Assembly: GCA_021836035.1 (NCBI GenBank)
Contig: JAKBJL010000004.1
Coordinates: 131,841 to 195,840 of the forward strand
Reading direction: 5' to 3'
Source of the DNA: a bacterium
GTDB taxonomy: Bacteria; Patescibacteriota; Microgenomatia; JAMCZE01
Length of the DNA stretch: 64,000 bases
How positions within the stretch are numbered: the first letter of the stretch is position 1; each line of letters starts with the position of its first letter. Position numbers and translations under genes: made by a program. Below are positions 25,930 through 45,931 of the stretch, one piece after another. Below the pieces are notes generated by a model. The model ran no database searches and was not told the origin of the DNA. It worked only from the letters and a program-made list of their open reading frames with translations.

Positions 25930-27719
25930 CCCCTAACCCTCTTTTTTAACCACAATAAAATCTTATCATAATCCCAGGTATTAATAATATCGGAGGCCTG
26001 AGACCAACCCCTCCTGGCAACGCTGACCCCGAATCTCATAAGATTCAGGTCTTCTTTATTATGAGCATCTGTTCCCAAACTCAGCTTTACGCCTCTTTTA
26101 ATCGCTTCGCGCACTAAAGTATCTGGTAAATCCAATCGATTGGGATAAGCGTTAATTTCTATTGCCTTATCATTGTCTAATAAGAAACGGAAAATGGTTT
26201 CCCAGTCAAGTTCATAACCTTCCCTGGTACCCAATAACCTTCCTGTGGGGTGAGCAAAAATCCTGACCAGGGGATGGGACAATCCCTTGATTACTCGTTT
26301 TGTCATCTCCTCGCGGCCAAGGTTAAAATTGCTATGAATACTTGCTAAACAACCATCGAGTAATAATTCTGCTCCTTTAGGCAAATTTAATATGCCCTTA
26401 GTATCTATATCAACTTCCAGTAAGTTTAATATATGAATACTATTAGTTGACTTCCTTAGGTGTTCAATATAAGCTAACCTGGCTGTCAATATATTTATTA
26501 TCTGTTCTTCACTATGATTGGAAACGCTGGGGTTATGCTCGCTAAAGGCTAAATATTCATAATTTAAATCTTTGGCAACTTGCAGCATGCTTTCCATCGT
26601 GTCTGCTCCCAAATCATGACTGGGTTCAACATTGTAATTACTGTGAGTTTGTAAATCGCCACGGATTTCCTTTAGCTCTACCAGTTTCGGTAGTTTTTTA
26701 CCCAGAGCCGCTTCGATTTCCCCGGTATCTTCCCTTATTTCCGGAGGGATCCATTCCATCCCCAAATATTTATAGAAAATGTCTTCTTCGGAAAATTGTT
26801 TGATCATACCATTTTTCAGAGATTTAATTCCGTATTCACTTAAGGAATTTCCACCTTGCCGTGCCCATTCCCGTAAATGGATATTGTGTTGTTTGCTGCC
26901 GGTAAAATATTGCAGCATTGATCCCCAATCTTCGGGGCTACACACTCGGAGATCTACCTGCCTACCGGAGGATATAAGCAATGAAGCGCCGGTGGGGCCA
27001 CGCTCGATAATCTGTTTCTTGCGCGGATAACCAGTGAAGATTTTTAAAACTTCCTCTGGTTTTCGGGTTGCTATGGCCAGATCAACATCCCCTATGGTAG
27101 ATACTCTTCTTCTTAGGCTTCCTAATTTTTCAATCTTCAAAATCTCTTCTCCAGCATTTTCTTTAAGATAAGAGATTAAATCTTCGGCCAACTGATCAGC
27201 AAACACTAAAGACATGCGGTTTTCCTTAACCTGGCCCAGTTCGTATAGACGAATTCCTTCTAAAATATCTTTTTCGCTCTTTTCACCGAAATTTTTCAGT
27301 GAAGCAATCTGGTGTTGTTTGGCTGCTTTTTTAAGTTCATTGATGGCGTTATGAGGATCATTTATACCCAATTCTATAACTAGTTTATGGGCTTTTTTTG
27401 GTCCAAATCCGGGTAAATCCAGAAGATTAAACATTGCCGGGGGCATTTTTTTCAAAACCACTTCGAAGTGGCCTACTTTTCCGGTACGGAACAATTCGTC
27501 GAGATGGTCGGCAATATTTTTCCCTACTCCGGGAATATCTTCCAATTTCCCGTCGTCCCAAAGATCTTTCGCCTCGCTGGTAGCGTGTTCAATTGCCGTA
27601 GCTGCGGATTCATAGGCTAAAACTCTGAATCTATTCTCGCCAAGAATGGTATAAGCTGCTGCTACCTTGCGTAACAAACGCGCTATCTCCAGATTTGTGA
27701 AGCCGTAGATTGATTTCAT
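25926..27719 (-). CDS. polX: DNA polymerase X family protein with C-terminal PHP domain
   Basis: HhH motifs (GIGKNIADHL, GFGPKKAHKL), pol-beta-like palm GDVD and PHP motifs LQTHSNYN, FSEHN. Confidence 0.8.
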   Translation of the reverse strand: MKSIYGFTNLEIARLLRKVAAAYTILGENRFRVLAYESAATAIEHATSEAKDLWDDGKLEDIPGVGKNIADHLDELFRTGKVGHFEVVLKKMPPAMFNLLDLPGFGPKKAHKLVIELGINDPHNAINELKKAAKQHQIASLKNFGEKSEKDILEGIRLYELGQVKENRMSLVFADQLAEDLISYLKENAGEEILKIEKLGSLRRRVSTIGDVDLAIATRKPEEVLKIFTGYPRKKQIIERGPTGASLLISSGRQVDLRVCSPEDWGSMLQYFTGSKQHNIHLREWARQGGNSLSEYGIKSLKNGMIKQFSEEDIFYKYLGMEWIPPEIREDTGEIEAALGKKLPKLVELKEIRGDLQTHSNYNVEPSHDLGADTMESMLQVAKDLNYEYLAFSEHNPSVSNHSEEQIINILTARLAYIEHLRKSTNSIHILNLLEVDIDTKGILNLPKGAELLLDGCLASIHSNFNLGREEMTKRVIKGLSHPLVRIFAHPTGRLLGTREGYELDWETIFRFLLDNDKAIEINAYPNRLDLPDTLVREAIKRGVKLSLGTDAHNKEDLNLMRFGVSVARRGWSQASDIINTWDYDKILLWLKKRVRG

Positions 27720-27837: not shown

Positions 27838-27910
27838 GGACCCGTAGTGTAGCGGCTAACACGCTGCCCTGTCACGGCAGAGATCACCGGTTCGAATCCG
27901 GCCGGGTCCG
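27838..27910 (+). tRNA. tRNA-Asp (anticodon GTC)
   Basis: Hand-folded: acceptor GGACCCG/CGGGTCC, anticodon stem CTGCC/GGCAG with loop CTGTCAC, T-loop TTCGAAT and discriminator G. Confidence 0.8.
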
Positions 27911-28020
27911 CGAAATGTTTCGGGATAACATCTTTTCGCGCGTCCCCACAGATTTAACTGCTGAAACACTCCTGCCTGTTTGACTTTCTGCCCCTTATTT
28001 ATTTCTGCCTTGAAAGGAGG

Positions 28021-28638
28021 ATGGAAATGGATAAATATCAGAAGCGCCTGAATAATTTGCTTAAAAAACATAAAATCTCCGAAGCTAATTTACGTATGGT
28101 TCTGGGGCTGGTTATTATTTTGGTCATCGGTATTCTGGCTTACAACATTTTTAAAGGCCAGCAGGTTTCACCGAATATCCCGGGCCAACCCCCAACCGAA
28201 GAACAACAGGGAGGAAGTAAAAGCGGCGGTTTAACTGCTCCGACAGCTGCGGTTGCTTTACCTACTGAACATACGGTGAAAGCCGGAGAGAATCTTTGGG
28301 GTATTGCGGAAAAATACTATACTTCCGGTTACAATTGGGTGGATATAGCTAAAGTTAATAATCTTTCCGATCCGAACGAAATAAACGATGGCCAAAAGTT
28401 AACTATTCCCAAAGTGGAAATCCGCCAACCTACCGTTTCTAATAGTCAGATAACTACTGTTATAACGGAAAGTAAAATAACCGGGAAAACTTACACAGTC
28501 ATCCACGGAGATAACCTTTGGGATATTGCGGTCAGAGCATACGGTGATGGGTTTAAATGGACGGAAATAGCTAAGGTCAATCAATTAGCAGATCCACAAA
28601 TAATTCACGCCGGAAATGTTCTTTCTATACCCCGATAA
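28021..28638 (+). CDS. LysM-repeat peptidoglycan-binding protein
   Basis: An N-terminal TM helix followed by two LysM repeats (HTVKAGENLWGIAEKYY..., YTVIHGDNLWDIAVRAYG...). Confidence 0.75.
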   Translation: MEMDKYQKRLNNLLKKHKISEANLRMVLGLVIILVIGILAYNIFKGQQVSPNIPGQPPTEEQQGGSKSGGLTAPTAAVALPTEHTVKAGENLWGIAEKYYTSGYNWVDIAKVNNLSDPNEINDGQKLTIPKVEIRQPTVSNSQITTVITESKITGKTYTVIHGDNLWDIAVRAYGDGFKWTEIAKVNQLADPQIIHAGNVLSIPR

Positions 28639-28900
28639 ATTCTTAACCGGGATAAAGTCGAAGGTTTTGTTATATAATTTAAGTGCTTAGCACGAAGTTA
28701 ATTCATGTGTGTTAAGTGGGTTTAGCACACCGGTTGTATGCTACCGGACTTTACCCTGTTAAATTCGCGGGTGTGGTGTACCGGTAACACGTCTCCTTCC
28801 CAAGGAGAAGACAGAGGGTCCAATTCCCTTCACCCGCTCCAGATGTGACAGAAATAAACACAAATGTACACAAAGTTACTAGTAAATTACATAAATTAAC

Positions 28901-30121: not shown

Positions 30122-30685
30122 ATGGTTGTTTTTATCGATGAATCGGGGACCAATAAGCATGAAGGACACGCAACGATGGCAGTGGTGTATGTTGAAGTAG
30201 TCAACAGAGAAAAGTTTGAAAAGGGCTTTTCCGACGCTCTTCAGGAGGTAGATATAGCGGAATTCCACTGGGCCGATCAGGGCTGGAAAGTGCGCCGCAA
30301 GTTTTTCGAGAAAGTCTTCTCCTTAGACTTCTTTTTTAAGGTGGCTGTCTTTAAAAATCCAGCCCACCCGGAAAAGATGATGGAGATTGTTTTCCAGCAC
30401 TTAATTACAGAGAAAAATATTCGGTGGATATTTATCGACGGCAAGAAGTCCCGGCGCTATGAGAATGAGTTTAAAAACGTTCTACGTTCTAAGGATATAA
30501 CCGTCAAGAAGTTGAAAACGGTTCGTAGTGAATCTTCTTATTTTGGTGTCCAGTTAGCCGACGCTCTGGCTGGGCTGATGCGCTATTTAGAGTACAATCC
30601 GGGCGCCGAAGATGCCAAACAAATGGTTTCAAAGCTGCAGAGATCTAAAAAGCTGTTTGCAAAATATATTTTCTCCGGTAAATAA
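30122..30685 (+). CDS. DUF3800-family protein
   Basis: The N-terminus MVVFIDESG matches the characteristic DUF3800 start (x-x-YIDESG). Confidence 0.5.
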   Translation: MVVFIDESGTNKHEGHATMAVVYVEVVNREKFEKGFSDALQEVDIAEFHWADQGWKVRRKFFEKVFSLDFFFKVAVFKNPAHPEKMMEIVFQHLITEKNIRWIFIDGKKSRRYENEFKNVLRSKDITVKKLKTVRSESSYFGVQLADALAGLMRYLEYNPGAEDAKQMVSKLQRSKKLFAKYIFSGK

Positions 30686-31337
30686 AACCTTCCAGAAATA
30701 TAAAAGCCCCGCGGAATGCGAGGCCAGTTAATCCAGCTAGATTGCCTTGCGGCAAACTTTCTCACACGGAGATTTGTCGCTGGTAACTTGTTGACTGTAT
30801 GTTACCACAAAAGTCAAGGAAAAACAACCGCAACTTGAGGCAAAAAAGAGTCGGTCTTGGCTATCCGCACACATACCGACTCCTTATACTGGTATATTAC
30901 CAAAAAACCAAGAGTTATCCACGCCAAAAATAGCCTCGCGATTTGCGAGGCCAGTTAAGTAAGTAGCTTATTTCTAAGCTCGTCCGCACGGGCCCTTGTC
31001 CCTACCAACCTAAGGAAGAAAGACAAATTATTGTTGATATGATTTCAACAATTAATTATTAGAAAATTTATTTAAGGTGCGAATACGTTCGATCTCCGGC
31101 ATGCTTCTCCCAAATTGGTAAGGATCGTCCTGGGCCGGCCCAACTATTCTCTAGTCTTTCCCGGGACAACACTCGTCTCTTTTGTGAAAAGATCATGACC
31201 AAAAGTCATTTTCCCCTAACTTAGGTGCGCATGGATAATGGTGCTGAGATTCGATCAAAAATGAGAGGATTTTTACGGGCCAGGCTGCTTAGCCATATTT
31301 ACAATCGGCCTTTCGGGCCAGATATGAATGGCAAGTT

Positions 31338-31768: not shown

Positions 31769-34700
31769 TTATCTTGGTACCACAGTTAACCAGCCCCCAT
31801 CGGAATGGCCGGAAACATCTGGAAAATACATTTCATAAGCCTGGGCTGGAAGATAATGGTACTTACCTGGAGTTGTAGCCCTAACACGATAAGTTACTTC
31901 ATAAACTCCGGCTGGAAGATAACGGGCAAAGAGAGTTGTTCTATCGTCATGGTATTCTTTATGGTCAAAATATGACGGCTGATAATGTTGTTCATGGTTT
32001 CGGGTTTGTGATTTTGGTGGTGTCTTACTTAAACTGACCACGTTTTTTAAACTTTCGTTAACCGATTCCAGTCCTGCTGGCAAAATATCTTCAACGGTTA
32101 CGTATTGGCGAAGTGCCGGGGCTACAATCGTCAAACGGACCCATGCTTCCGTACCCTCTTTAATTGTATCTGACGGTAGAATATGTCCATTACTATCAAC
32201 AAATTCCCGTACGACAACAATTCCCTGATCTAAAGATTTAATTTGTGCAAACGGTAGGAAATATCTTAAATTAAAATTGTAATAAAGATTGCCCGTCCCG
32301 CTTTTTGACAGACGGAAACTGTTATCCTTTCCAAGCTTTAGATTTGAAACAGGAGCAATGTACTTTTCTAAGTTAAGAAGGTCAGAAGGTTGGAATTGGC
32401 CCGATTTCAAATTTTGCCCATTAACCTCAAGTTTATATTTTTCCTGGAGGTTTTTATTTTGCTGGGAAAGCAACTGCATCGAAATAGCTTTTACCACTGA
32501 CGCTGTTTCTTGGGTTGATCCCCAATAATTGTCTGTGCGGCTAGCCATTAAATATCTGACAACTTCGGGAATGTAAGGACTGTGGGGATCAAATGCCAGA
32601 AGCATTTCTAGACCGGCGGCGGTAGCCGATTTGGCATCACTAAACCAGTAGAAATAATTTTTATTTGAATCTTCCCAATGGGTTGAAGTAGCGGTTTTCT
32701 TAGCCAGACTGATCATTTCTCCGTAAACCCGATTTGCTTGTCCTGACATACCTGATTTGTGAAGTACCAAAGCTAAATAAGCTCTGGACTGCATTGTCAG
32801 TTCAAAACGATGGTCATAAAGAGTGGCCGCAAAGGGGGCCGTAATATCGCGACGGGAATCCTTAAGAGCGTATAAAATATAAGCTTGAGAATCGCGGTCC
32901 AGAGTTTTTCCGCGTGATAGACTCTGCCACAAGTAACTTTCGGCCTGATTAAAAGTATTATCCGAGACGATTAATCCGTCTTTCTTTGCTTCGTAAAGAG
33001 ACTGATAGGCATAGGCTGTCATGACAGGATCCGAATCTCCTTCTAACCACCAGCTCCATCCGCCATCGGAATGTTGAGTATTATTTAATCTTTGCAGACC
33101 ATCATTGATAAGAAATTTCAATTGCGCCATAGTTACCACACCCAAACTGTCAATTTTAGCCTGTTTGAAAACCCGACGGGCGTAGATGGCGGGCAATAGC
33201 TTACTGGTAGTTTGTTCTGTACAGTAATATGGATATTCATATAAATAGGAAAGTGCCTCTATACTTCCGGAACCCAACGAGGGAGAAATAGTCACTTCCG
33301 CCTGGCCGCGGGTGGGATCGATGTCTTTTGGAAGATTTACGTTTTCCTGGGCAGTATCCGCAACTTGTCCCGCCGTGGCCACCACTTCCGGAATGGAATA
33401 CGACTTTACCGGTAGGGTTTGTAGTAAGCTGTCCCGTGGACTTCCGTCTTTATCGTTTACCGAAATATAAACCTGGGCAGAATTGGTACTGCTAACCATG
33501 GTTGTCCATAAGAGCTTAACCTGATCTCCATCAGCTATAGTGGCAACACGGGGTTGGTTATCATTAACGGTAAATCCTTTTCCGGACATACTGACACTTA
33601 CATCAGCAGTTGCCCCGCTAGTATTAACAATGATTGCTCCCATTTGAGCTTGGTCACCAACAGATAGGAAGCGTGGCAAAACGGGACGAATAAGAACGTC
33701 TCGGTTAACCAGAAATTCTGTTATGGCAGAACCGAAAGCCGAATCAGACGTATCGGCTATGACGGCTAACCTCCAAGTGGTTAGATTATCGGGTAATTTA
33801 ACAGTTATGTCTGCTTGTCCGTTGGCCCCGGTAATTAAGGAGGGATTCCAATAAGCTGTTTCCGGAAAGTTTTGACGAGCAGTATCTGGTCCGCCGCCTT
33901 TCTGATTATGAACATAAATTCCATCAGCAAAATAGGTATGATATTTATCGACCTCAAGATTGTAAACCGCGATATCTTTTCCGAAAACCTGTTCTAGTGA
34001 GAAAACTCTTATGGGGAGATTATTTTTATCCAAAAGGTAATCACCGATTTTAATTTTACCCGCGACTTTCCAACCGTTGTTCACATATATTAGATGAACT
34101 GGCGTTACTTGAATTGTTCCGTTAATAATGATGTAATGGTCGACGGAATGCTTGTAAGTGGCAGTCACTTTGCCTGGTTCCAATGTTACAGACGCCGGAT
34201 AACTTTTTGTTAAAACAGTGTCCCCGGGTTGAATATCTGCAATCCTTTTGGTCATACCACCCTGAAGTAGAATCTGAGTGTCGGCTGTAAAACATCCTCC
34301 GCTTCCGCCTTTAGCTCCGAGGTTGGTGTTTTTATTTATCCGATCCATAGAAATAGTAAGAAGCTGCGAAGTGTCAACTTCAAGGTTCCGCGGTTGGTAA
34401 AAATACTGATAAATATCAGGCAGCTGAATACGAGACAAATCCCAAACCGCTTTATCTACTAATCCCACAGCTAATTCGGAACTAACCGGATGACCCAAAA
34501 GGTCTTTGGTGGTAATAGTTGCGTGCATGGTATCTCCCGGCTTGTAGCGTTTCTTATCTGTTTGAATGTCTACTGCAACCTGTTGCTTCTTGTCAGTCAC
34601 CTTGACTTCTACATAACCAATTTTCATTTCCGGTGGGGCTTTAACCAGATTACCGCCTTTAACTAAGACCGCGCCGATGTAAACATTTGGCGAGTAGCCA

Positions 34701-37700
34701 GGATTAATAGTCAGAGGAAAATTATTTGTCTGATCGTTAGTATCAACGATTTGGTATCCGATGACTTTCGCCCGTTCAACTGTTAAGAGTGTTTTTGCTG
34801 ATCCCGAAGCAAATGGAGAATTAACAAAAATCGACGCAGTATCACCAACCGCATATTGTCGTTTATCTGGAACGACTAAAATTCGGTCATTATTATTTCT
34901 GTCAGTCACAAAACCATACCCGGATACCCAAAGATAGCTGCTAGTTCGGTTTGTATTTCCCGAAGAATCAGTCGCCTTTGCCAAAACTCTATAAGTTCCT
35001 CCCTCGCTTGGAGTAAAAGAGGCTGCCGAGTAGCCCAGATTATCCGTTGTTACGGAAGTTGAAGAAACTAATGTATCATGAGGGTTACTAACATAAATAT
35101 ACTGACCGCTGCTGGGGTCTTGTTGACGAACCGTATCCCACGTCCGCTTATAAAATTCAATAGAAACCGGGGTATTAGGCGCTTCGTTACCGTTTGGTAA
35201 TACCGTTACTACCCCAACTTTCGATTCCTGGCCGGACTTGCTGCCATAACTTTCCGGGTGAAGTCCGACATAGATTCCGCCCTGATGAATAATGTATTCC
35301 CCTGACGAACCAACCGCTTGGTTACTCTGGTCAGAAACGGACGCAGCGACAATTAAACGCTGGCTGGTTTTATATTTACCCATGTTGAAGGGAAGCTGTA
35401 AATTAAGGTTTCCATCATTGTCGGTAACTCCTTTGCCACTTCCAACCAGCGTTTCCGAACCGTTATTTTGCCCATAACCCGACCATCGAGCCCAATAACC
35501 TTCGGGGTCGCCAAACTCATACCGCCAATCCTTGTCCCATTTAAAGAAATAATCTTGAGTTTGGACTGACCATTGAACTGGGGCATTCGTTACTGGTGCT
35601 CCAAAATAATAAGAAGAATTTATGGAGATTTGCGGCACCTCATTTGGTAAGTAGTAGCTTTTATTGGTTTTTATTGTCAAAAGCATGTCTGGGCGACGGT
35701 ATTCCTCCACCTGAAATTGCTGGGTAATACCGTTATTGGAATACGTTGCCTGAAGTTGATAATCTCCGAGAGTGGCATCGGCACTAAGGACAAACGAATC
35801 GGCAAAAGAACCATAGGAATTGATTGGCAAAGATTGGGTATAAAGTGGACGGTTCCGGGCGTCATTAATTGTTACTGAAACCTTTTCTCCCGGGGCAAGA
35901 TTCGCATAAGCGGCATCGTTATCTTTTTTAATTAATCCTTTGAAATAGACTTTTTGCCCCGGGCGGTAGATCGGTCGGTCCAAAGTCAGGAATAGCTTAT
36001 ATCGGTTGGTACTATCCTGATAATCTTTTTGCTCAGAGGGGTTGTAATAACTAGGTAGTCCAAAATCGTAACGGTTTATTCCCTGACGCCAATTACTGGA
36101 GGCAACCACTAAATCGTTGTCTTTTTGGGCAAATAGGAGCAGATTATCTTTCTGATTAAGGTTTACGTCCTGTTGCCAAACACCATCCTGGTTTGACTGA
36201 CCTTTAGCTAGTGAATTGCCGTAACTATCAGTCAATTCCATATTCATCCCTGACAGAACCGTTCCTGAACTTTGATCAACCGCCCAAGAGAAGATCTGCT
36301 GACTGCTTTTTTTAACTGTCAAAGTAGCGTTCGAAACAATCATTACTAAATTATCGTGTTGCCCCGTTGATAATTTAGCTTCCAGAAAATAAAAACCCGA
36401 CTGCAAATTTCCGCCGTTCTGATCGGTTACTTTTGTCACTACTGTTATGGGAACATTAGGATTTATGTCGAAGGTCTCGTTCCAGCTACGAACTTTTTGG
36501 AGAGCCGCGGGGTTATAATTTTGCCAGTTTCTACATTGATGATAGTCTGACCCACAGACGTTTTCATAGCGCTTTCGGTAGAGATCCAATAAATCGTTCC
36601 TGCTAAGCTTGTAAAGGTTGTAATCAATCCGGGAAGTATTAGTAACCTGGGCAACGATGCGGGGGGTAATTTGTTGGTTAAAAGTGGCAAAGAAAACGCC
36701 GAATGGCATGATTGAAACATTGGGCTGGTAAGGAGCAGTGTTGAAATTAAAAGTGTAGGCTTTTCCCAACGGAACTCCGTATTGATCTTTAACATCGGGT
36801 CCGATTGTGATCGTGTAATTGGTTGATCTTTGAAGATAGGTCCCAATTGTTAAAGTATTAACACCCTGATAATTATTAAAAACTAGCTCCGGTTTGGCAT
36901 CGGGTTCCGGACTAATAAATACGTTGCCAATGAAAGATTCCTGATCCATAGGGGTTTTGAAAATAACCTCGATCGAGTTTCGCGCCTGAATATCTTTTCC
37001 TTCGTTCTCCGGCGAGGACTTAAGCACCTTGGGCAGGTCAGCTACGGTAAAATTCCATGAGTAGTCGCTTTCCAAACCATTAGGGCCGTCGGTGCTTTGT
37101 AATCCGGAAGAAACTACAGCCCGGTAATTCTTTTCCCGATTCAATGGCGTTGATGCGTAGAACCCCAATGTTTTACCAGAAACAACCACTTTTCCGGGAA
37201 CAGAGGTGTTGGTTGAATCAAGTAGCTTGAAATATTTTGCCGCCGATGCTGGGTCGACTGGTTGGTTAAATGTAGCTGATACCGACGCAACAGGCGAGGC
37301 AAAAGAGTAACCCGAACGGGGCGTCACTGCCTCGACGTGTGGTCTTGGGCTGGAAAATTGCCAGGAAATGTTGGAATTTAAAGAACCACCGTCTTGTGAT
37401 TTCAAACCGGAATCTACCACTACGGTATAAGTTGTCGCTTTCTTAAAAGGAACTGACGGGGTAAATTGATAAGCGGTAGTGCCTAACCAACGGCCTTCCC
37501 CAACAACTGAGGGTGAAATTGTGAATGCCGGTTTTTTAAGTACACTTTTAGTAGTTGCGGTTAACGGAATCATTGGCCGATCGAAAACTACAATTACCGG
37601 GGAAAAACCCTCAACCGCTTCGTTTTGTGGGGAATAAACAGCTACTTTCGGGTCACCAACGGTGGTAAAACTAATCGTGTGGCTTCCCCAAAGGGGGGAG

Positions 37701-38320
37701 AAAAAACTCGAAAGAGTTAAACCGCCAAGTTCTGCGGTGTATTTCTGTCCCCGTATCAGCTGTGTCTTAGGAGTAAAAATCAACTTTTGGTTGCTTTCCC
37801 AGTCGAAAGTTCCCTCGACCGCAGGCGAAAGACGGAAATTTTTCTCAACCAGTGATTTGTTCATTCCTCGGTCAAAGATAATTTCAATTTTGGAATCCAG
37901 TGGGTTTTCAGTGGAGGCGTTACCCGGAAAAGAGAACGAAACTCTAGGGGGTAGGAATAACGGACCTATCTGCCACAGAAGAAACAACACGATAAATATT
38001 AGGCCCGGTTTCTTTATTATTCTCAGTTGCTCCTGCCGAGAGGAAGTTCGGAAACGTTGCAGCCATTCCTTAACATAAGTTATTACCCGATTGGGGTATG
38101 GTAATAACCTGGCGAACAGTTGGCGGATTTTTTCTTTATGGTAATCCCCTAATCTTTTGTAAATAATAAAAATAATTGCTGCTAGGGCCAAAAGCAGTTG
38201 GATAATTTGGCTTTTAATGGTCGTGAAGGGAATAATTATGAAGTAAATGCATAAAAAAAATGCAATAATAAAAAGTAAAAATATGCCGATTACTTTTCCA
38301 AATTTTCTGATAAAGCCCAT
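31769..38320 (-). CDS. bacterial alpha-2-macroglobulin-like giant protein (thioester CTEQ) carrying an inserted Hint/mini-intein-like domain
   Basis: 2183 aa with N-terminal TM helices. It has the thioester motif YPYYCTEQTTS and is adjacent to a PBP1C-type gene, the conserved A2M-PbpC pairing. A Hint domain is embedded at about aa 1343-1472. Confidence 0.7.
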   Translation of the reverse strand: MGFIRKFGKVIGIFLLFIIAFFLCIYFIIIPFTTIKSQIIQLLLALAAIIFIIYKRLGDYHKEKIRQLFARLLPYPNRVITYVKEWLQRFRTSSRQEQLRIIKKPGLIFIVLFLLWQIGPLFLPPRVSFSFPGNASTENPLDSKIEIIFDRGMNKSLVEKNFRLSPAVEGTFDWESNQKLIFTPKTQLIRGQKYTAELGGLTLSSFFSPLWGSHTISFTTVGDPKVAVYSPQNEAVEGFSPVIVVFDRPMIPLTATTKSVLKKPAFTISPSVVGEGRWLGTTAYQFTPSVPFKKATTYTVVVDSGLKSQDGGSLNSNISWQFSSPRPHVEAVTPRSGYSFASPVASVSATFNQPVDPASAAKYFKLLDSTNTSVPGKVVVSGKTLGFYASTPLNREKNYRAVVSSGLQSTDGPNGLESDYSWNFTVADLPKVLKSSPENEGKDIQARNSIEVIFKTPMDQESFIGNVFISPEPDAKPELVFNNYQGVNTLTIGTYLQRSTNYTITIGPDVKDQYGVPLGKAYTFNFNTAPYQPNVSIMPFGVFFATFNQQITPRIVAQVTNTSRIDYNLYKLSRNDLLDLYRKRYENVCGSDYHQCRNWQNYNPAALQKVRSWNETFDINPNVPITVVTKVTDQNGGNLQSGFYFLEAKLSTGQHDNLVMIVSNATLTVKKSSQQIFSWAVDQSSGTVLSGMNMELTDSYGNSLAKGQSNQDGVWQQDVNLNQKDNLLLFAQKDNDLVVASSNWRQGINRYDFGLPSYYNPSEQKDYQDSTNRYKLFLTLDRPIYRPGQKVYFKGLIKKDNDAAYANLAPGEKVSVTINDARNRPLYTQSLPINSYGSFADSFVLSADATLGDYQLQATYSNNGITQQFQVEEYRRPDMLLTIKTNKSYYLPNEVPQISINSSYYFGAPVTNAPVQWSVQTQDYFFKWDKDWRYEFGDPEGYWARWSGYGQNNGSETLVGSGKGVTDNDGNLNLQLPFNMGKYKTSQRLIVAASVSDQSNQAVGSSGEYIIHQGGIYVGLHPESYGSKSGQESKVGVVTVLPNGNEAPNTPVSIEFYKRTWDTVRQQDPSSGQYIYVSNPHDTLVSSTSVTTDNLGYSAASFTPSEGGTYRVLAKATDSSGNTNRTSSYLWVSGYGFVTDRNNNDRILVVPDKRQYAVGDTASIFVNSPFASGSAKTLLTVERAKVIGYQIVDTNDQTNNFPLTINPGYSPNVYIGAVLVKGGNLVKAPPEMKIGYVEVKVTDKKQQVAVDIQTDKKRYKPGDTMHATITTKDLLGHPVSSELAVGLVDKAVWDLSRIQLPDIYQYFYQPRNLEVDTSQLLTISMDRINKNTNLGAKGGSGGCFTADTQILLQGGMTKRIADIQPGDTVLTKSYPASVTLEPGKVTATYKHSVDHYIIINGTIQVTPVHLIYVNNGWKVAGKIKIGDYLLDKNNLPIRVFSLEQVFGKDIAVYNLEVDKYHTYFADGIYVHNQKGGGPDTARQNFPETAYWNPSLITGANGQADITVKLPDNLTTWRLAVIADTSDSAFGSAITEFLVNRDVLIRPVLPRFLSVGDQAQMGAIIVNTSGATADVSVSMSGKGFTVNDNQPRVATIADGDQVKLLWTTMVSSTNSAQVYISVNDKDGSPRDSLLQTLPVKSYSIPEVVATAGQVADTAQENVNLPKDIDPTRGQAEVTISPSLGSGSIEALSYLYEYPYYCTEQTTSKLLPAIYARRVFKQAKIDSLGVVTMAQLKFLINDGLQRLNNTQHSDGGWSWWLEGDSDPVMTAYAYQSLYEAKKDGLIVSDNTFNQAESYLWQSLSRGKTLDRDSQAYILYALKDSRRDITAPFAATLYDHRFELTMQSRAYLALVLHKSGMSGQANRVYGEMISLAKKTATSTHWEDSNKNYFYWFSDAKSATAAGLEMLLAFDPHSPYIPEVVRYLMASRTDNYWGSTQETASVVKAISMQLLSQQNKNLQEKYKLEVNGQNLKSGQFQPSDLLNLEKYIAPVSNLKLGKDNSFRLSKSGTGNLYYNFNLRYFLPFAQIKSLDQGIVVVREFVDSNGHILPSDTIKEGTEAWVRLTIVAPALRQYVTVEDILPAGLESVNESLKNVVSLSKTPPKSQTRNHEQHYQPSYFDHKEYHDDRTTLFARYLPAGVYEVTYRVRATTPGKYHYLPAQAYEMYFPDVSGHSDGGWLTVVPR
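33905..34294 (-). other. Hint / mini-intein-like domain (130 aa) inside the A2M-like ORF
   Basis: Block A CFTADTQILLQGGMTKRIADIQPGDTVLT, block B TPVH, and blocks F/G VYNLEVDKYHTYFADGIYVHN. The terminal HN is followed by Gln, not Cys/Ser/Thr. Flanking extein reads GAKGGSGG | ... | QKGGGPD. Confidence 0.65.
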
Positions 38321-38376
38321 ACTTTACTCTTAATATTATTAAAGTAAAAAGGTTGGGTATTTACAATGAGGAACAA

Positions 38377-40809
38377 TTACGGATAGTCGACAACAGACAT
38401 GTTAACCGCATCAGCGTCGATTGTCTTTCCAGAAGCTGATTTGCCCTCCGCTTTCACGACATGCTTTCCTGTAATCAAAGACCAAGAAACGGTGAACGGC
38501 TGGCTCGTTGTTGTTTGGTAAAACACACCATCAACATACCAGTCAACCTTTATAATATCGGCAGACGCATTGACCTTTAAGTCTAACGACTGGTTTTTGA
38601 CGAGTGTCGGAGCTGATTGATAAACCGCCTTGGATTCTGGTGATGTAACCGCCAAATAAGAGTTTTGCGATTGAGGGGTGCTTACTTGTCCGCACAGCGG
38701 CGAATAATCTTTAGGAATCGCAACTAAGTTGTTTTCCACGGCCCATTGGTAAACCTGGGGAGGATAATCCAGAAAGGTTTTTTCCATAACAGCCGACGGC
38801 GGACAACTATCTGTCGCCAATAAATCATTGCGGAGGTCCACTTTAACTGTCTTATAAATGTGGGAAATATTTTTAGGCTCTGTGCCTTCAATAAATAGCT
38901 CAGTTAGTCGATCGGTGCATAAATTATTCGGTAAAAGGCCATCCGCTTTGCAAATTTCAACTTCCTTCAGGCCCGGGGGACGGACAAAATTCTCAACCGT
39001 CTTTCCCTTGGCAAACTCTTCAAAAAATTGGTGCCAGATCGGTGCTGCCCCGGTAATTCCCGTTAATTGGGTCATTGGGTTGTTATCATTGTTTCCGACC
39101 CAAACACCGACAGAATATGAGGGAGTATATCCGACAGTCCAATTATCATGCCAATCGGTAGTCGTCCCGGTTTTAACTGCGGCCGGAAAAGATAACACCA
39201 GGGGATTTTTTTCGCCAAAACCTAAAATTCTGGCGTGGGGATCGGAAAGAATATTGGTAATCAGATAAGCTATTTGTTGGCTTTTTGCACCGAGCGCCGG
39301 CTTGGAATTAGGGATCTGGTGTTGATACAAAACCTTCCCGCCGTCATAGGTTATTTTTTCGATCGCGTATGGAGGCAAATAATTACCCCCACGAGAAAAG
39401 TCTGAGTAAACATTAGTTAAGTCTAACAGTGTTACTTCTCCGCCACCTAAGGTTAGCGCCAAGTCATATTTGGGATCTGGTGCTAAGGTAGTGATACCCA
39501 GGCTCGAAGCTGTATTAAGAAAACTTCCTATTCCGATTCGGTGAAACATTTCCACGGCGGGAAGGTTAAGTGATGAAGCTAAAGCTTCCCGGGCCAATAC
39601 TAATCCATGAAATTGGTTATCATAATTATTCGGGGCAAATCCTTCACCCTTATTAGTTTTGTAAACCGTACGCACGTCATAGATCAAGGTCGCTGGAGTA
39701 TATCCCTGCATAAAGGCGGTGGCATAAGTAATTGGTTTCAGGGCTGACCCTGGCTGGCGCGGGCTAGTAGTCAAATTGACTTGCCCGGCGTGCGTTGCGT
39801 CAAAATAATCTATCCCGCCCAACATTACTCTTATCGCACCCGTTTGATTTTCCAGCATAATAAGTGCCGCGTTGGACAGATTGTGATCGTCGCGTAGCTT
39901 GTTAACCCAATTACTGGCTATATCTTGGGCTAAAGAATAGTCTGGATAATCCAGGGTTGTGTAAACATTAATCCCCTGTTTTTGCTCCTTTATCCCGGTT
40001 TGTTCGATTTCTTGGCGAACATAATCTATAAAATGCGGGGCCTTAATCCGGTAACCGTCTCTGGACAGGATTATCGGTACGGATTTAGCAAGCGCTGCTT
40101 GATCGATGGTTATAAATTTATTCTTCACCATTAAATCCAATACCGTGGTCTGCCGTTGTTTTGCCTGTTCGAAATTCACATAAGGATTATTCCTGTCCGG
40201 GGAGGAAATCAGTCCGATCAAGAAAGCACTTTCGGCTAAAGAAAGATTATTAACGCTCTTATCAAAGTATGACAACGAGGCCGCTTGTATACCGTATGCC
40301 AAATTTCCAAAATACATTTGATTAAGATACGTTGTTAAGATAGATTTTTTAGAGTATAACGCCGTTAGCCTTAGGGCGATTATCATTTCCCGGATTTTAC
40401 GGACCACGCTTCTGGAGCTGGAAGACCGATCGGATATCACTAGCGCGCGTGCTAACTGCTGTGTAATTGTACTTGCCCCGCTGACGATCTTTTTTGCCTT
40501 AATATCTAAAAGCGCCGATCTTGCCATGGCCGGGATATCAATCCCCGAATTGGTCCAAAACGTGTTATCTTCAGAGGCAATTACGGCATTTTTTAAAGTG
40601 TCGGGGAGGTTATCATAGCTCACGGGGATTTTTCTCCCAATTCCCCCCGCTGATTCATAAAGTAAAATCCCGTTCCGGTCCCAAATTTTAACCGTTCCCG
40701 GGCTTTTTAGCTCCGGGTTAGTCCACCAGAAGGCAAGAACAAACAATCCGGCGAAGATAACTATCAGGACCTTAAAGCGAAGGCCGAAACTCTTCGGGTA
40801 AATCTTCAT
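38377..40809 (-). CDS. pbpC: bifunctional penicillin-binding protein, PBP1C-like (GT51 transglycosylase + transpeptidase)
   Basis: GT51 motifs (ASEDNTFWTNSGID, RKIREMIIALRL), transpeptidase SALKP (SxxK) and KTGTT, and an N-terminal TM anchor. Confidence 0.75.
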   Translation of the reverse strand: MKIYPKSFGLRFKVLIVIFAGLFVLAFWWTNPELKSPGTVKIWDRNGILLYESAGGIGRKIPVSYDNLPDTLKNAVIASEDNTFWTNSGIDIPAMARSALLDIKAKKIVSGASTITQQLARALVISDRSSSSRSVVRKIREMIIALRLTALYSKKSILTTYLNQMYFGNLAYGIQAASLSYFDKSVNNLSLAESAFLIGLISSPDRNNPYVNFEQAKQRQTTVLDLMVKNKFITIDQAALAKSVPIILSRDGYRIKAPHFIDYVRQEIEQTGIKEQKQGINVYTTLDYPDYSLAQDIASNWVNKLRDDHNLSNAALIMLENQTGAIRVMLGGIDYFDATHAGQVNLTTSPRQPGSALKPITYATAFMQGYTPATLIYDVRTVYKTNKGEGFAPNNYDNQFHGLVLAREALASSLNLPAVEMFHRIGIGSFLNTASSLGITTLAPDPKYDLALTLGGGEVTLLDLTNVYSDFSRGGNYLPPYAIEKITYDGGKVLYQHQIPNSKPALGAKSQQIAYLITNILSDPHARILGFGEKNPLVLSFPAAVKTGTTTDWHDNWTVGYTPSYSVGVWVGNNDNNPMTQLTGITGAAPIWHQFFEEFAKGKTVENFVRPPGLKEVEICKADGLLPNNLCTDRLTELFIEGTEPKNISHIYKTVKVDLRNDLLATDSCPPSAVMEKTFLDYPPQVYQWAVENNLVAIPKDYSPLCGQVSTPQSQNSYLAVTSPESKAVYQSAPTLVKNQSLDLKVNASADIIKVDWYVDGVFYQTTTSQPFTVSWSLITGKHVVKAEGKSASGKTIDADAVNMSVVDYP

Positions 40810-41334: not shown

Positions 41335-43917
41335 ATGGGAAACATAAACTGGCACAATCTGGAGGCGGGGTATTTATTAAGTCATTTCTCTTCTTATTCA
41401 GAATTACTTAAAGAAAGTTTATTTTCTGTCTCTTCCCGTTATTTTTTCCTCTCCCCTTCTTTTCTACTTTTGATATCCATAGCGCTCTCCCTTCTTATCG
41501 TTATTCGCAGGCTTTTTATCCTAAAAAGATCGCTGAGTGAAGAACCGGTATTTCTGGAACTGACCCCGCCGGCCCTCACCGATAAAACCTCTTATACCAC
41601 CGCCCGGCTTTTCTCCGTCGTCCACGAACTGGGGAAGATTGGGTACCCGGGCGATAAGCTTTTAGGTAAAAAGACCGTTTTTTCTTTTGAAATCTCCTCC
41701 ACCCTTAAGCAGGGTATTCGCTATTTCATACGGACTACCCGGACCGAAGAAGATAACATCAAAAAAAGCCTTTTAGCCTACCTTCCCCAAATAAGCGTTA
41801 AAGAAGCGACTGATTACCTGCCGGGAAAGGCCGGCGGTTTATTTTGCCTAAAAGTACTTGAATTTAAACTCAACCGCCACTTTGCCTTTCCCCTTAAAAA
41901 ACAGAATGTTTTGGAAGAACACGATCCCCTCGCCTACATAACCGGCATGATGACCAAGCTCAAACCCGGGGAATTAGTCTCTTTCCAAATTGTCCTGTCT
42001 CCGGTTCAGCCAAAGGAAACAGAGACTATCTCCGACAAGATTCTTCACGGCGATGATGTATTTAAGTATCTGGAAAGAATACCTCTACCGTCGCTTTTTA
42101 AACCGCTAACCTATGGCTTATCGCTTTTGTCTAAACTGCTGCATCCTTTCGCTGCCCTACCAAAAAGAACCTATAACACCTTCGAACAACAGGCGGTAAA
42201 AAGCATTCAGGAGAAAATCGAACAACCGCTTTTTGAGACTTCGGTCAGATTATTGCTTATGGTAAAGAACAAAAATCAGATAAGGGAAAGAAAAAACGGT
42301 TTTGTTTCCTCCTTGGCCACTTTCTCTGTGCCTAAATATCAGGCTTTTAAGGCCAAATATAATCTTCTGCCCTGGATCCTGGACAAAATTAACCTTTTTA
42401 ACTTCCAAAAGAGACGGTTGTCTTGGCTTTTAAATTCCAGTCCCGTGTATCTTTCTTTAGCTGAGGTTTCCGACCTCTATCACTTTCCATTTAAGAGGGT
42501 CACCCAGACAGAAGACCTGGTAAAAGTGTATGCCAAAGACCTTCCCGCGCCGTTATCGTTGAAAAACACCAAGCTTGATTATGTTTTTGCTAAAAACAGC
42601 TTCGGAGGTACGGTTACCGATATCGGGCTAACAGACAAGGAGAGGGAAAAACACGTGTACATTATCGGCGCTACCGGCACCGGCAAGACCACGATGATTA
42701 TGTCCATGGCCAATAATGACTTGAAAAACGGTAAGGGACTGTGTGTTATTGACCCTCACGGCGACCTGGCTGAAAGTATTATCGCCTGTGTTCCGGATGA
42801 AAGAATTTCGGATTTTATCTACTTTAACCCGGACGATATCAAATATCCCATCGGGCTAAATCTCTTGGAACTGACTCCCGGACTGGATGAAGACGAGCTT
42901 TTAAGGGAAAAAGAGCTGATTACCGAAAGCGTGGTGTCCCTGTTTAGGAAAATCTTCTCCGAAGTCTGGTCTGCCCATGCCCATAGGATTGAATATATCT
43001 TAAGAAACACCATCCAGACAGCTTTGTGCCTGAAAGATCCGACCATCTTTACCGCCTACCGCCTTTTGACCGATCCGGAGTTTCAAAAATCGGCTATGCA
43101 TGATGTCACGGATGAAAATTTGAAAAACTTCTGGAAAAACGAGTTTGGCAAGGCCGGCGATTTCCAGAAAGTGAAAATGATCGGGCCAATTACTTCAAGA
43201 ATCGGACGTCTTCTATTTTCTCCATCTGCTAAAAGGATTTTGGAACAGCCCAGGTCAACGATTAACTTTGATGAGATCCTGGACAAGGGAAAAATCCTGG
43301 TTTGCAACTTGTCTAAAGGCCGCCTGGGAGAGGATACGTCAGAAGTTTTGGGAATTATGATTTTAACTAAAATCCAGCTGGCTTCTCTTAAGAGGGCACG
43401 GATCGATGAAGGGAAAAGAAGTCCTTATTACGTTTACGTTGACGAATTCCAAACCTTTGCCACCCCGTCTTTTATCCAGATGATATCTGAGTCGAGAAAA
43501 TACAAGGTTTACCTCGTCATGGCCGAGCAGTCCACTTCCCAGCAAAAAGACCGCAATATAACAAACGTCATAATCGCCAACGTCGGAACAGTCATAAGTT
43601 TTCGAAGCGCCAACCCGGAGGATGAAAAACTGATGCTTCCGCAGTTTGAACCGTATGTTGATAAGGGAGAAATTACCAATCTGCCATCCTTCAAGTTCTA
43701 CATGAAGATATCAGCCATTACTCCCCGGGAACCTTTCTCCGGGGAAACGATTTTAACTCCGGTAAATAAGGATAAAGACCGGTGTACGTCGCTTATCCAA
43801 TCCTCGCGCAATTTGTATGCCAAAGAATATCTCGCTCCGGTTGCAACCAAAGTTATTCCCAGAGCAAAAAAGCCCGGAAAAGAAGAAGTTTTTGAATCGA
43901 TAAGCGTCCTGACTTAA
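41335..43917 (+). CDS. type IV coupling protein-like P-loop ATPase (VirD4/TraD/TraG superfamily)
   Basis: 860 aa with an N-terminal TM segment, Walker A IIGATGTGKTTMI, VIDPHGD and Walker B YVYVDEFQTF. Confidence 0.6.
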   Translation: MGNINWHNLEAGYLLSHFSSYSELLKESLFSVSSRYFFLSPSFLLLISIALSLLIVIRRLFILKRSLSEEPVFLELTPPALTDKTSYTTARLFSVVHELGKIGYPGDKLLGKKTVFSFEISSTLKQGIRYFIRTTRTEEDNIKKSLLAYLPQISVKEATDYLPGKAGGLFCLKVLEFKLNRHFAFPLKKQNVLEEHDPLAYITGMMTKLKPGELVSFQIVLSPVQPKETETISDKILHGDDVFKYLERIPLPSLFKPLTYGLSLLSKLLHPFAALPKRTYNTFEQQAVKSIQEKIEQPLFETSVRLLLMVKNKNQIRERKNGFVSSLATFSVPKYQAFKAKYNLLPWILDKINLFNFQKRRLSWLLNSSPVYLSLAEVSDLYHFPFKRVTQTEDLVKVYAKDLPAPLSLKNTKLDYVFAKNSFGGTVTDIGLTDKEREKHVYIIGATGTGKTTMIMSMANNDLKNGKGLCVIDPHGDLAESIIACVPDERISDFIYFNPDDIKYPIGLNLLELTPGLDEDELLREKELITESVVSLFRKIFSEVWSAHAHRIEYILRNTIQTALCLKDPTIFTAYRLLTDPEFQKSAMHDVTDENLKNFWKNEFGKAGDFQKVKMIGPITSRIGRLLFSPSAKRILEQPRSTINFDEILDKGKILVCNLSKGRLGEDTSEVLGIMILTKIQLASLKRARIDEGKRSPYYVYVDEFQTFATPSFIQMISESRKYKVYLVMAEQSTSQQKDRNITNVIIANVGTVISFRSANPEDEKLMLPQFEPYVDKGEITNLPSFKFYMKISAITPREPFSGETILTPVNKDKDRCTSLIQSSRNLYAKEYLAPVATKVIPRAKKPGKEEVFESISVLT

Positions 43918-43983
43918 GTAATTTCAGTGTCAGACCTTTGACACCGGATCTAATTAAAATTGAGGCTAACCAGCTAAAAAGTC

Positions 43984-44838
43984 TTGTCTATATATTACTT
44001 ATACAAGTATAAGGAGAGAAACAATATAAAAGCTGTTAAGGAACAAAAAAATATGAAGACTCCCCCTAAACTAAATCCCAGACTTGAAGAGATCCTCCTT
44101 CTAATTTACCGATTCCGATTTCTAACTACTTCTCAAATTCAAATCCTTCTTAATCATAAATATCACAGCCGTGTCAATCTCTGGCTAAATCAATTAACCG
44201 CTAGAAATTATCTCAAGCGCTACTATAACTTAAAATTTGCCGGTGAGCCAGCTTTATACTCTTTGGGAACTGCCGGAAGAAAATATTTCAAAACCCACAA
44301 AGAAATTAACAGAATAAAATTGTCGCTTCTTGATAGGGTTTGGACGGAGTACCGTAATTCCTCCCAATTTAAGCGTAACTGCCTGTTGCTGGCTGATATT
44401 TATATCTCCCTTTTAAGTTTAGCTAATAAAGCAAAAGCCAAGCTGGGTTTTTATTCCAAAGTCGATCTTTTCGGCATGAAATTTATGGTTTTGCCCGAAC
44501 CATCGTGTTATTTTTCCCTGGAAGACCAAAACGGCGTAACCAAACGCTATTTTCTGGATATCTTTGACTACTTTGTTCCCAAAGACCTTTTTAAACGGAT
44601 TAAAAAATACCTCTACTACTTTGAAAAACGCTACTGGCAGGACCATACCGACAAAACCTTCCCGGAGATAATCCTGGTCTGTCCCAATAAAGCGGCAAGA
44701 ACTTATCTGGAGAAAACCATCAGGGGCAACCTTGAAGATAAAGATTATTCCCTAACATTTTACTTGGCCTTGACAGAAGATATTCAGCAAAAAGGATTAA
44801 ACAGACAGGTATTACAAAAAGTAGAAATTCAATATTAA
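43984..44838 (+). CDS. replication-relaxation (Replic_Relax) family protein, putative relaxase/mobilisation protein
   Basis: An N-terminal wHTH-like LNPRLEEILLLIYRFRFLTTSQIQILL is typical of the Replic_Relax family. It sits directly downstream of the coupling ATPase. Confidence 0.5.
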   Translation: MSIYYLYKYKERNNIKAVKEQKNMKTPPKLNPRLEEILLLIYRFRFLTTSQIQILLNHKYHSRVNLWLNQLTARNYLKRYYNLKFAGEPALYSLGTAGRKYFKTHKEINRIKLSLLDRVWTEYRNSSQFKRNCLLLADIYISLLSLANKAKAKLGFYSKVDLFGMKFMVLPEPSCYFSLEDQNGVTKRYFLDIFDYFVPKDLFKRIKKYLYYFEKRYWQDHTDKTFPEIILVCPNKAARTYLEKTIRGNLEDKDYSLTFYLALTEDIQQKGLNRQVLQKVEIQY

Positions 44839-44875
44839 ATGAAATAGTGGCAGTAAAAATTGATACAATTTAGAT

Positions 44876-45733
44876 ATGAATTGGATAATTGCCAGCTTAG
44901 TAATGTTCGTTTCCTCGGTAGTGATGTATTTGTTTATCCGTAAATCGGCTTTACTAAAACTTCCTTCTCAATATAACAACCTCGCAATGTTTGGGATACC
45001 ATTATTCGTCTTTATTACCATAGGGTTGTTTTCAAAACAAAATTTCATAATTCCTTTTAACTATCTTCTCGCTATCTTTATAATTTCTATATTATTTAGT
45101 TATCTTGGAAACGTATTTTCTTTAATTAGTATCGAACGGTCTCCCAATCCTGGTTACAGCTTAGTAATCTCAAAAAGCTATGTAGTATTTACGACCATAC
45201 TTTCCGTTTTGTTCTTCAATTCCGAGTTGTCCATCAAGAAAGGGATCGCAATACTTCTTATCGTCGTATTTTCTGCACTCATAATGTTGTCGCAAAAATC
45301 TATAAAAAAAGTCTCTAACAATAGGTGGCTGTTCCTTGCTTTTGGAGCGTTTTTTTGCTGGGGCTTCTTATCTTTAGCCTCTAAATATATGTTTAACTTA
45401 GGGGTTGGGCTTTACGTATTTTTGTCTTATACCTACCTTTTCGTAAGTATTTGTATATTAATTGAAATGCATATTAAGAAAATGTCCCTCAAGTCATTTG
45501 TAAAGAATCCTTGGCAATTTTTATTAATCGGTCTTGCCTCGATTGGGTTCAATCTTTTTCTTTTCTTGGCAATAAAGCTGGCTCCAAATGTTGGATATGT
45601 TAATGCAATTAACGCTGGCTCAATTTCCGCGGTAACGGTACTAGCGATTTTATTATTTAAAGATGAATTTTCACTACGAAAGCTTGTTGGTGTAATTGGG
45701 GTTACAGCCGGACTTTTGATGCTGTTAATTTAG
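44876..45733 (+). CDS. polytopic membrane protein, DMT/EamA-like
   Basis: 285 aa with about 10 TM helices arranged as two similar halves. Confidence 0.35.
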   Translation: MNWIIASLVMFVSSVVMYLFIRKSALLKLPSQYNNLAMFGIPLFVFITIGLFSKQNFIIPFNYLLAIFIISILFSYLGNVFSLISIERSPNPGYSLVISKSYVVFTTILSVLFFNSELSIKKGIAILLIVVFSALIMLSQKSIKKVSNNRWLFLAFGAFFCWGFLSLASKYMFNLGVGLYVFLSYTYLFVSICILIEMHIKKMSLKSFVKNPWQFLLIGLASIGFNLFLFLAIKLAPNVGYVNAINAGSISAVTVLAILLFKDEFSLRKLVGVIGVTAGLLMLLI

Positions 45734-45925: not shown

Positions 45926-45931
45926 CAGCAT

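Follow-up and report, generated by a model that had tools for sequence, protein, structure and literature searches.

We analyzed a 64,000-nucleotide stretch (here called the window) of contig JAKBJL010000004.1 from a member of the Microgenomates group of the Patescibacteria (candidate phyla radiation, CPR), whose nearest named relatives are Amesbacteria, Shapirobacteria, Gottesmanbacteria and Roizmanbacteria. The window encodes an alpha-2-macroglobulin (A2M) with a 130-residue insert, which is, judged by its conserved residues, a catalytically intact type-A bacterial intein-like (BIL) domain of the PT-HINT family, hereafter the Hint domain. Both protein families are already known, and the pairing of A2M with penicillin-binding protein 1C (PBP1C) is textbook knowledge. 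What is new is the placement of an autoprocessing-type Hint domain in the trigger loop of an A2M; the arrangement recurs over three A2M classes in the CPR lineages sampled and is naturally polymorphic for presence or absence. A preliminary description of this DNA, made from the sequence alone, had suggested that a Hint domain in an A2M may be undescribed, and our literature searches on A2M with Hint, intein, BIL or Patescibacteria found no published description of one. In public records, some of the proteins carry the automatic NCBI label "polymorphic toxin-type HINT domain-containing protein"; another automatic label is "Ig-like domain-containing protein".

The preliminary description delimited the Hint domain as residues 1343-1472, with Cys1, a TPVH block B and a terminal VHN, and we recovered the same boundaries and blocks. 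The PT-HINT profile PF07591 matches residues 1358-1472 (whole protein, 47.4 bits; domain alone, 53.4 bits; cutoff 27.7), and the NCBIfam profile TIGR01443 (intein_Cterm) scores 27.8 bits against a cutoff of 15.6. Cys1 (Cys1343) is encoded at 34292..34294, Thr64 and His67 of block B (T1406-P-V-H1409) at 34094..34105 (-), and the V-H-N terminus ends with His129-Asn130 (H1471-N1472) at 33905..33910 (-). The +1 residue is Gln, as described, and the expectation that canonical splicing would not occur agrees with a sub-threshold score for PF14890. The best solved relative by sequence is the Clostridium thermocellum BIL 2LWY (E 8e-11), followed by BUBL1 BIL2 of Tetrahymena. We built an AlphaFold2 model of the domain with 33 homologs (pLDDT 89, pTM 0.83), in which the Gly linkers on both sides are disordered (pLDDT <50 in the upstream linker). 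Foldseek comparison of this model with the PDB returned Tetrahymena BIL2 first (6Y75; E 3e-12, TM 0.80, probability 1.00) and 2LWY second (E 1e-10, rmsd 1.9 A, probability 1.00), and both outrank every true intein and Hedgehog structure. These profile and structure matches are not due to chance. A BIL-like reading had been suggested before, and the nearest solved relatives are indeed type-A BILs. Such domains are defined by Cys1, a C-terminal His-Asn, the lack of a +1 nucleophile and residence in variable regions of non-conserved bacterial proteins (PMC7765530; PMC4031507). The window domain shows the fold, a PF07591 score above threshold, Cys1, T-x-x-H, His-Asn and no +1 nucleophile, and it sits in the variable region of a predicted surface protein. 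From these conserved residues we infer that the domain carries out autocatalytic cleavage or splicing. A second Hint domain was looked for in the window and not found.

Other identities for the insert were considered and rejected. The Hedgehog-type Hint profile (Hog, PF01079) is matched in its N-terminal half only (positions 10-91 of 213; whole protein, 26.1 bits; domain alone, 31.6 bits; cutoff 29.7); moreover, His-Asn is present and an A2M macroglobulin (MG) domain, not a sterol-recognition region, lies downstream. A polymorphic-toxin pretoxin module was rejected because a normal A2M C-terminal half (MG7, the thioester domain [TED] and MG10) follows the insert, with no toxin. A degenerate or decaying intein, offered as an alternative in the preliminary description, was rejected, as Cys1, T-x-x-H and His-Asn are invariant in 125/125 A2M-hosted copies.

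Alignment places the Hint domain in the bait proper, or no more than about 20 residues from it. Window residues 1101-1314 align with residues 708-920 of Salmonella A2M (4U48), and residues 1496-2175 with 971-1641. When the Hint domain is removed, the spacing between the aligned blocks is identical (51 vs 51 residues), and the insertion maps to approximately residue 948 of the Salmonella protein. In E. coli A2M, the bait is the disordered segment Arg923-Leu942 inside MG8, and cutting the bait untethers a disordered segment and drives activation (PMC4498604). The placement follows from comparing these two positions; the preliminary description had advised an alignment to bacterial A2Ms to learn whether the insertion falls at the boundary of the bait region and an MG domain.

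Alignment of the 81 closest full-length homologs, in which Hint is present in 45 and absent in 36, shows a clean Hint indel within a Gly linker. Hint-free homologs read ...NLGAKGGSGGG-GGG(G)-G-NDTSRRDFPETAYWNP, and Hint-containing homologs read ...GGSGG(G)-[Cys...His-Asn]-QKG-G-NDTSR... The K-G-G-S-G-G upstream of Hint is invariant in the 45 Hint-containing proteins, and the aligned Hint-free homologs have the same reading. The bait of Hint-free proteins in the window's own class (class a, below) is nearly pure glycine: in the column of window residues 1337-1480 it reads KGGSGGGGGGGG, then N-D-T-S-R (e.g., P0031, and L003 at 6001-12039). This composition is odd for a bait meant to be cut by a broad spectrum of proteases, and Gly-Gly endopeptidases might be the target. 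In relatives outside the CPR (Anaerolineae), the baits are rich in Ala and Pro. Hint is flanked by copies of an 8-nt direct repeat, AAAGGCGG, at 33893..33900 and 34310..34317 (-), in the K-G-G codons at -6..-4 and +2..+4. It is probably incidental, because repeat-mediated deletion would not give the observed Hint-free linker.

The Hint domain is at the same site across three diverged A2M classes in the CPR lineages sampled, and is a trait of the family, not an oddity of a single gene. An exhaustive Hint profile search over 1.84 billion cluster representatives gave 39,370 matches at E <= 1e-3. The best 150 of these include 39 A2M-family proteins of full length (>1300 aa), each with one Hint located between A2M_BRD and A2M; a small number of shorter proteins among them match A2M as well. 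A scan of species representatives (one genome per species), biased to the Hint-in-A2M architecture by its use of junction motifs as patterns, found 227 genomes with a relative and placed Hint within the A2M open reading frame (ORF) in 80/80 loci kept. Named hosts are Microgenomates, WWE3, Peregrinibacteria, Peribacteria, Gracilibacteria, Saccharibacteria and many Parcubacteria lineages. Class a proteins are 2100-2300 aa long, with PBP1C upstream in 12/12 loci with enough flank and CxEQ in 14/15. Class b (about 1600-1790 aa; CxEQ in 23/24) and class c (about 1750-1900 aa; CxEQ in 1/42) have no PBP1C nearby. Metagenome-assembled genomes titled "uncultured Gammaproteobacteria", "Pseudomonadales" and "Bathyarchaeia archaeon" (L010, L012, L016, L019-L021, L023, L024 and others) carry a CPR-type Hint-A2M, with a PBP1C neighbor where flank exists; these bins are probably mislabelled or contaminated.

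The residues at the active site and junctions are strongly conserved. Cys1, Thr64, His67, His129 and Asn130 are invariant in the 45 class-a Hints. Of all 125 A2M-hosted copies, 121 have Gly at -1, 119 have Lys at +2 and 111 have Gly at +3; at +1, 115 have D (53), Q (47) or E (15), 1 has Cys and 2 have Ser. The 45 class-a copies have Q (35), D (5), E (4) or C (1) at +1, and all 45 have K at +2. The sole class-a homolog with a +1 Cys, P0050 (His-Asn-C-K-G), has an extra Cys-containing insert, GDGPCVA, after the junction, and judged by these residues its Hint could splice canonically. A neighbor-joining clade that holds all 125 A2M-hosted Hints includes just 7/206 non-A2M copies, and the A2M-hosted domains are 46-48% identical between classes vs 34% to other copies. 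The same Hint subfamily also occurs in non-A2M proteins as tandem arrays (P0121, P0122, P0125, P0131, P0138 and others), with up to 14 matched stretches per protein and copies 3-4 residues apart ("His-Asn-K-G-G(G)-Cys"). The +1 residue is Lys in 135/198 of the non-A2M copies. By these counts, Lys just after His-Asn is a trait of the whole subfamily, at +2 in A2Ms and +1 elsewhere.

Hint appears to be inherited with its host and to evolve at the same rate. Within class a, pairwise identities of Hint and of the rest of the protein correlate closely (Pearson r = 0.947) with means of 0.57 and 0.56, and no pair lies beyond |z| = 3. The GC content of Hint (0.385) compares with 0.430 for the gene and lies within the spread of the gene's 390-bp windows (sd 0.026, minimum 0.367). 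A recent horizontal acquisition of Hint is thus unsupported, both by GC content and by the lack of Hint-versus-host identity outliers. Hint-containing (45) and Hint-free (36) proteins are nevertheless intermixed in the host tree, where the Fitch criterion requires at least 15 state changes.

The preliminary description advised looking in related genomes for an intein-free allele, and one was found. Loci L001 (ENA) and L002 (JGI) carry Hint and L003, from a second ENA sample, is Hint-free, as are the 36 of 81 homologs above. The three loci have a common gene order and 6-kb upstream flanks that are 99.95% identical. Comparison of the L001 and L003 genes shows an in-frame indel of 387 bp that corresponds exactly to the 129-codon Hint, and the proteins P0013 (with Hint) and P0031 (Hint-free) are 99.4% identical outside Hint. 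Of the 23 remaining mismatches between L001 and L003, 13 fall in the 150 bp that follow the indel on its downstream side (binomial p about 1e-15). This cluster led us to reject simple deletion as the source of the Hint-free allele, and it points to an allele swap by recombination with a diverged allele. By these comparisons, Hint-containing and Hint-free alleles coexist in one natural population.

On balance, we think it somewhat more likely than not that the exported protein loses its Hint domain through self-excision, along the nucleophile-independent route of type-A BILs, and that the bait is religated. Type-A BILs form an N-terminal thioester, Asn cyclization then cleaves, and the freed amine ligates (PMC4031507). 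After export and folding of the A2M, an N-to-S acyl shift of Cys1 at Gly(-1)-Cys1 would produce a backbone thioester, and Asn130 would cyclize with the assistance of His129 to cut the C-terminal junction. With Gln at +1 rather than Cys, Ser or Thr, a branched ester could not form, so the flanks would be rejoinable only through attack of an amine on the thioester. The attacking group could be the alpha-amine of Gln+1 or the epsilon-amine of Lys+2, and its attack would rejoin the A2M halves. The 14-kDa Hint would be released, leaving a continuous Gly-rich bait of the length found in natural Hint-free alleles. The mature protein would then be an ordinary A2M protease trap beside its PBP1C partner, with uncoupled cleavage into two chains as an expected side reaction. 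Hint would be passed on vertically and exchanged or lost via homologous recombination with Hint-free alleles. We favor religation because the two alleles interchange at one locus in one population, because the predicted spliced product and the Hint-free allele are of exactly equal length, and because constitutive cutting of the bait would set off the trap and squander a conserved thioester.

Several observations weigh against excision with religation. In tested type-A BILs, "cleavage products dominate" over splicing (PMC4031507), and for the window protein the processing, its timing and its products are deduced from sequence. The flanking A2M domains are only about 30% identical between classes, and Hint is 46-47% identical. 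In class c, 37/37 of the closest homologs of P0247 (28-66% identity) contain Hint; Hint-free relatives appear among the weaker matches only, and the few of these with taxon names are non-CPR. With Hint fixed in class c and more conserved than its host domains, in streamlined CPR genomes, the domain looks more like a selected function than a neutral passenger. Furthermore, the class-a CxEQ motif is intact in 36/36 Hint-free proteins and 37/45 Hint-containing proteins, so that it was lost in 8/45 vs 0/36 (Fisher p = 0.0076, uncorrected for phylogeny). These eight losses (P0008, P0015, P0017, P0020, P0022, P0028, P0043 and P0054) occupy at least 6 separate places in the tree, and their confinement to Hint-containing lineages is not predicted by a purely neutral splicing element.

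A less probable, though serious, alternative is that the BIL cuts one or both junctions without religation. The result would be a two-chain A2M, and the cut would act as a built-in maturation step or a self-trigger. The chains would be a membrane-anchored N-terminal part of ~1342 aa and a C-terminal part of 711 aa with MG7, CUB, TED and MG10, held together by the MG domain that the bait interrupts. As a self-trigger, a timer or chemical cue could expose the TED thioester without a protease, and covalent attachment to host-cell surfaces is a possible use. The cleavage products that type-A BILs mainly yield in vitro (PMC4031507) favor this explanation, as do the general view of PT-HINT (PF07591) domains as releasers of downstream modules and the activating conformational change that bait cutting drives in E. 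coli A2M, where the bait lies inside MG8 (PMC4498604). The fixation of Hint in class c and its conservation beyond that of the host domains also suggest a selected function. However, functionally different products are hard to square with alleles that swap within one population at a single locus and have done so 15 or more times in class a as a whole, and constitutive self-triggering would waste the thioester that most class-a proteins retain. The preliminary description had proposed self-cleavage into two chains; we keep this as one possible outcome, and the population data favor religation over it.

We regard it as rather unlikely that the Gly(-1)~Cys1 thioester serves as a second warhead, resolved by a lysine epsilon-amine. 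Attack by Lys+2 would give an isopeptide-stapled bait, and attack by a lysine of a foreign protein (an attacking protease or a host surface protein) would conjugate that protein to the N-terminal chain, for covalent capture or adhesion, independently of the TED thioester. The near-universal Lys+2 of A2M-hosted copies and the common Lys+1 of non-A2M copies are in keeping with this idea, and the nearest structural relative, Tetrahymena BIL2, forms an isopeptide with Lys and can attach its N-extein covalently to other proteins (PMC8616854). If true, such a Hint-based covalent trap in the bait, beside or in place of the TED thioester, would explain both the universal Hint in class c, where CxEQ is nearly absent, and the loss of CxEQ in class a from Hint-containing proteins only. 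Yet Lys+2 could equally serve in catalysis or as a trypsin-type bait residue, class b retains both Hint and CxEQ, and the allelic polymorphism argues for equivalent products.

It is very improbable that the domain is a selfish mini-intein with canonical class-1 splicing. The precise, in-frame intein-free allele, the TIGR01443 score over cutoff and the +1 Cys of P0050 are what such an element might show. Against it stand the +1 Gln, the scarcity of Cys (1/125) and Ser (2/125) at +1 in A2M-hosted copies, and the PF14890 (Intein_splicing) scores of 21.0 and 31.5 bits vs 35.8. In addition, the domain has just 130 aa and no homing endonuclease, it is inserted in the most variable loop (a poly-Gly bait linker) of a non-housekeeping surface protein rather than in a conserved active site, and Hint and host identities give no sign of horizontal movement. 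It was the +1 residue, the PF14890 score below threshold and the site of insertion that led us to reject a canonical intein. A catalytically dead Hint, kept as a structural spacer or extra protease-sensitive bait, is scarcely credible given that Gly-1, Cys1, T-x-x-H, His-Asn and the K-G that follows are conserved over three A2M classes whose other domains are ~30% identical.

These findings give the HINT superfamily an unexpected host, a member of the thioester-protein family in which the domain occupies a loop whose integrity controls activation. If splicing is true, Hint would be a naturally occurring splicing module that operates outside the cell, between Gly linkers and independently of a +1 nucleophile, and so an attractive tool for protein engineers. 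If cleavage or conjugation is true, it would be a new, protease-free way of arming or firing an A2M. In either case, Hint-A2M is a conserved surface feature of the Patescibacteria, whose cell envelopes and host contacts are very little known, and the A2M gene occupies 6.5 kb in CPR genomes that are typically very small. The near-isogenic natural pair P0013/P0031 makes the Hint question directly testable.

The remainder of the A2M is consistent with a type I (ECAM/YfhM-like) protein, with the domain array, CxEQ in the TED and an adjacent PBP1C-type gene (Table 1). Its PDB sequence matches are Salmonella A2M 4U48 (E 5e-40) and E. coli YfhM (4RTD also matched), and a protein identical to it (P0001) is on a public contig. 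The thioester motif CTEQ of the preliminary description is present and falls in the CxEQ column of the homologs. Three hydrophobic helices (residues ~10-31, 36-56 and 105-123), with a Lys/Arg-rich loop between helices 2 and 3, form the N-terminal anchor. The positive-inside rule suggests that the A2M is membrane-anchored with its bulk outside the cell. No lipobox is present in the A2M N-terminus, in departure from the lipoprotein anchor of type I A2Ms. Four Big_5 domains were also identified with Pfam. The predicted function of the window A2M is that of a protease trap with covalent capture.

Table 1. Features of the A2M gene and its PBP1C-like neighbor. Positions are those of the window; residues are those of the encoded protein.
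Feature	Residues	Position	Strand	Basis
Alpha-2-macroglobulin (A2M) gene	2183 aa	31769..38320	(-)	ORF, Pfam, PDB sequence matches
N-terminal membrane anchor	1-123	37952..38320	(-)	Kyte-Doolittle scan
Macroglobulin core bMG3, MG2, bMG5, bMG6	662-1125	34946..36337	(-)	Pfam
Bait-region domain A2M_BRD	1149-1295	34436..34876	(-)	Pfam 77.2 bits
Upstream Gly-rich bait linker NLGAKGGSGG (-1 = Gly)	1333-1342	34295..34324	(-)	Alignment and model
Type-A BIL / PT-HINT domain (130 aa)	1343-1472	33905..34294	(-)	Profiles, alignment, model
Downstream linker QKGGGPD (+1 Gln, +2 Lys, +3 Gly)	1473-1479	33884..33904	(-)	Alignment
A2M domain PF00207, directly after conserved FPETAYWNP	1488-1578	33587..33859	(-)	Pfam 62.7 bits
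Thioester domain start	1687-1800	32921..33262	(-)	Pfam TED_complement 35.2 bits
CTEQ thioester motif	1700-1703	33212..33223	(-)	Translation
C-terminal bMG10 domain	2033-2168	31817..32224	(-)	Pfam 99.4 bits
PBP1C-like bifunctional peptidoglycan synthase gene	810 aa	38377..40809	(-)	ORF translation and Pfam
GT51 (Transgly) domain	60-227	40129..40632	(-)	Pfam Transgly 188.9 bits
Transpeptidase domain	316-593	39031..39864	(-)	Pfam Transpeptidase 65.4 bits
BiPBP_C domain	713-787	38449..38673	(-)	Pfam BiPBP_C 34.2 bits

The A2M-PBP1C pairing claimed in the preliminary description is real. The two genes share a strand, in the order PBP then A2M, with 56 bp between them, and the PBP homolog is immediately 5' of A2M in each of the 12 class-a loci noted above. 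The PBP translation contains SALK, SLN and KTG motifs. We call the protein PBP1C-like because it scores 484.5 bits against TIGR02073 (PBP_1c), slightly short of the curated cutoff of 494.2.

Four genes lie divergently upstream of the pair at 41335..47475 (+). They encode a TrwB/TraG-D-like coupling ATPase (41335..43917), a Replic_Relax protein (43984..44838) and an AbiEi/AbiEii toxin-antitoxin pair (45932..47475), and look like mobile-element remnants. On the other side, a DUF3800-II RNA motif (Rfam RF02961; 30722..30794 (-); 67.7 bits vs a gathering score of 43.2) stands directly after a DUF3800-family gene (30122..30685 (+)), and a second similar GC-rich hairpin lies ~200 bp beyond it at 30931..30953 (-). 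Nearby genes for tRNA-Asp (27838..27911), tRNA-Gly (28767..28841) and tRNA-His (13994..14066), all (+), a protein with two LysM domains (28021..28638 (+)) and a PolX-type polymerase (Pol beta thumb and PHP; 25926..27719 (-)) look like ordinary context.

Among known systems, E. coli ECAM/YfhM and Salmonella A2M (type I), each with PbpC, resemble the window pair in the MG array, the bait-region domain, the CxEQ TED, the C-terminal MG10, the adjacency of a PBP1C-type gene and a disordered-loop bait. The window A2M differs in that it is anchored by three N-terminal transmembrane helices, whereas ECAM is a lipoprotein according to PDB molecule names, and in having ~500 extra N-terminal residues with Big_5 Ig-like repeats. 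The gene order PBP then A2M, the nearly pure Gly bait and the 130-aa Hint within it also set the window side apart. The type-A BILs, such as that of C. thermocellum (2LWY; PF07591), share with the window domain the HINT fold, Cys1, T-x-x-H, His-Asn, the lack of a +1 nucleophile and a position in the variable region of a secreted or surface protein (PMC7765530; PMC4031507). In contrast to known members, the window Hint has an A2M host, a trigger-loop site, a subfamily of its own and a (D/Q/E)-K-G C-flank, and has no polymorphic-toxin module downstream. BUBL1 BIL2 of Tetrahymena thermophila (6Y75, 6TMM) is the best structural match and likewise combines the absence of a +1 nucleophile with a lysine near the junction. 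It is a eukaryotic domain between ubiquitin-like flanks, and its isopeptide activity has been demonstrated (PMC8616854), whereas isopeptide formation by the window Hint is hypothetical.

Canonical class-1 mini-inteins (Mtu RecA, Ssp DnaB and gp41-1) are like the window domain in fold, Cys1, T-x-x-H, His-Asn and the existence of element-free alleles. The window Hint is distinguished from them by the lack of a +1 Cys, Ser or Thr, of a conserved replication or repair site, and of a homing endonuclease or signs of homing. In complement C3 and C4, the cut that yields the chains is made by furin, a separate protease of the host, and not by an embedded autoprocessing domain. If the BIL only cleaves, its cut would fall in the region equivalent to the C3/C4 chain cut, in a protein of the same superfamily.

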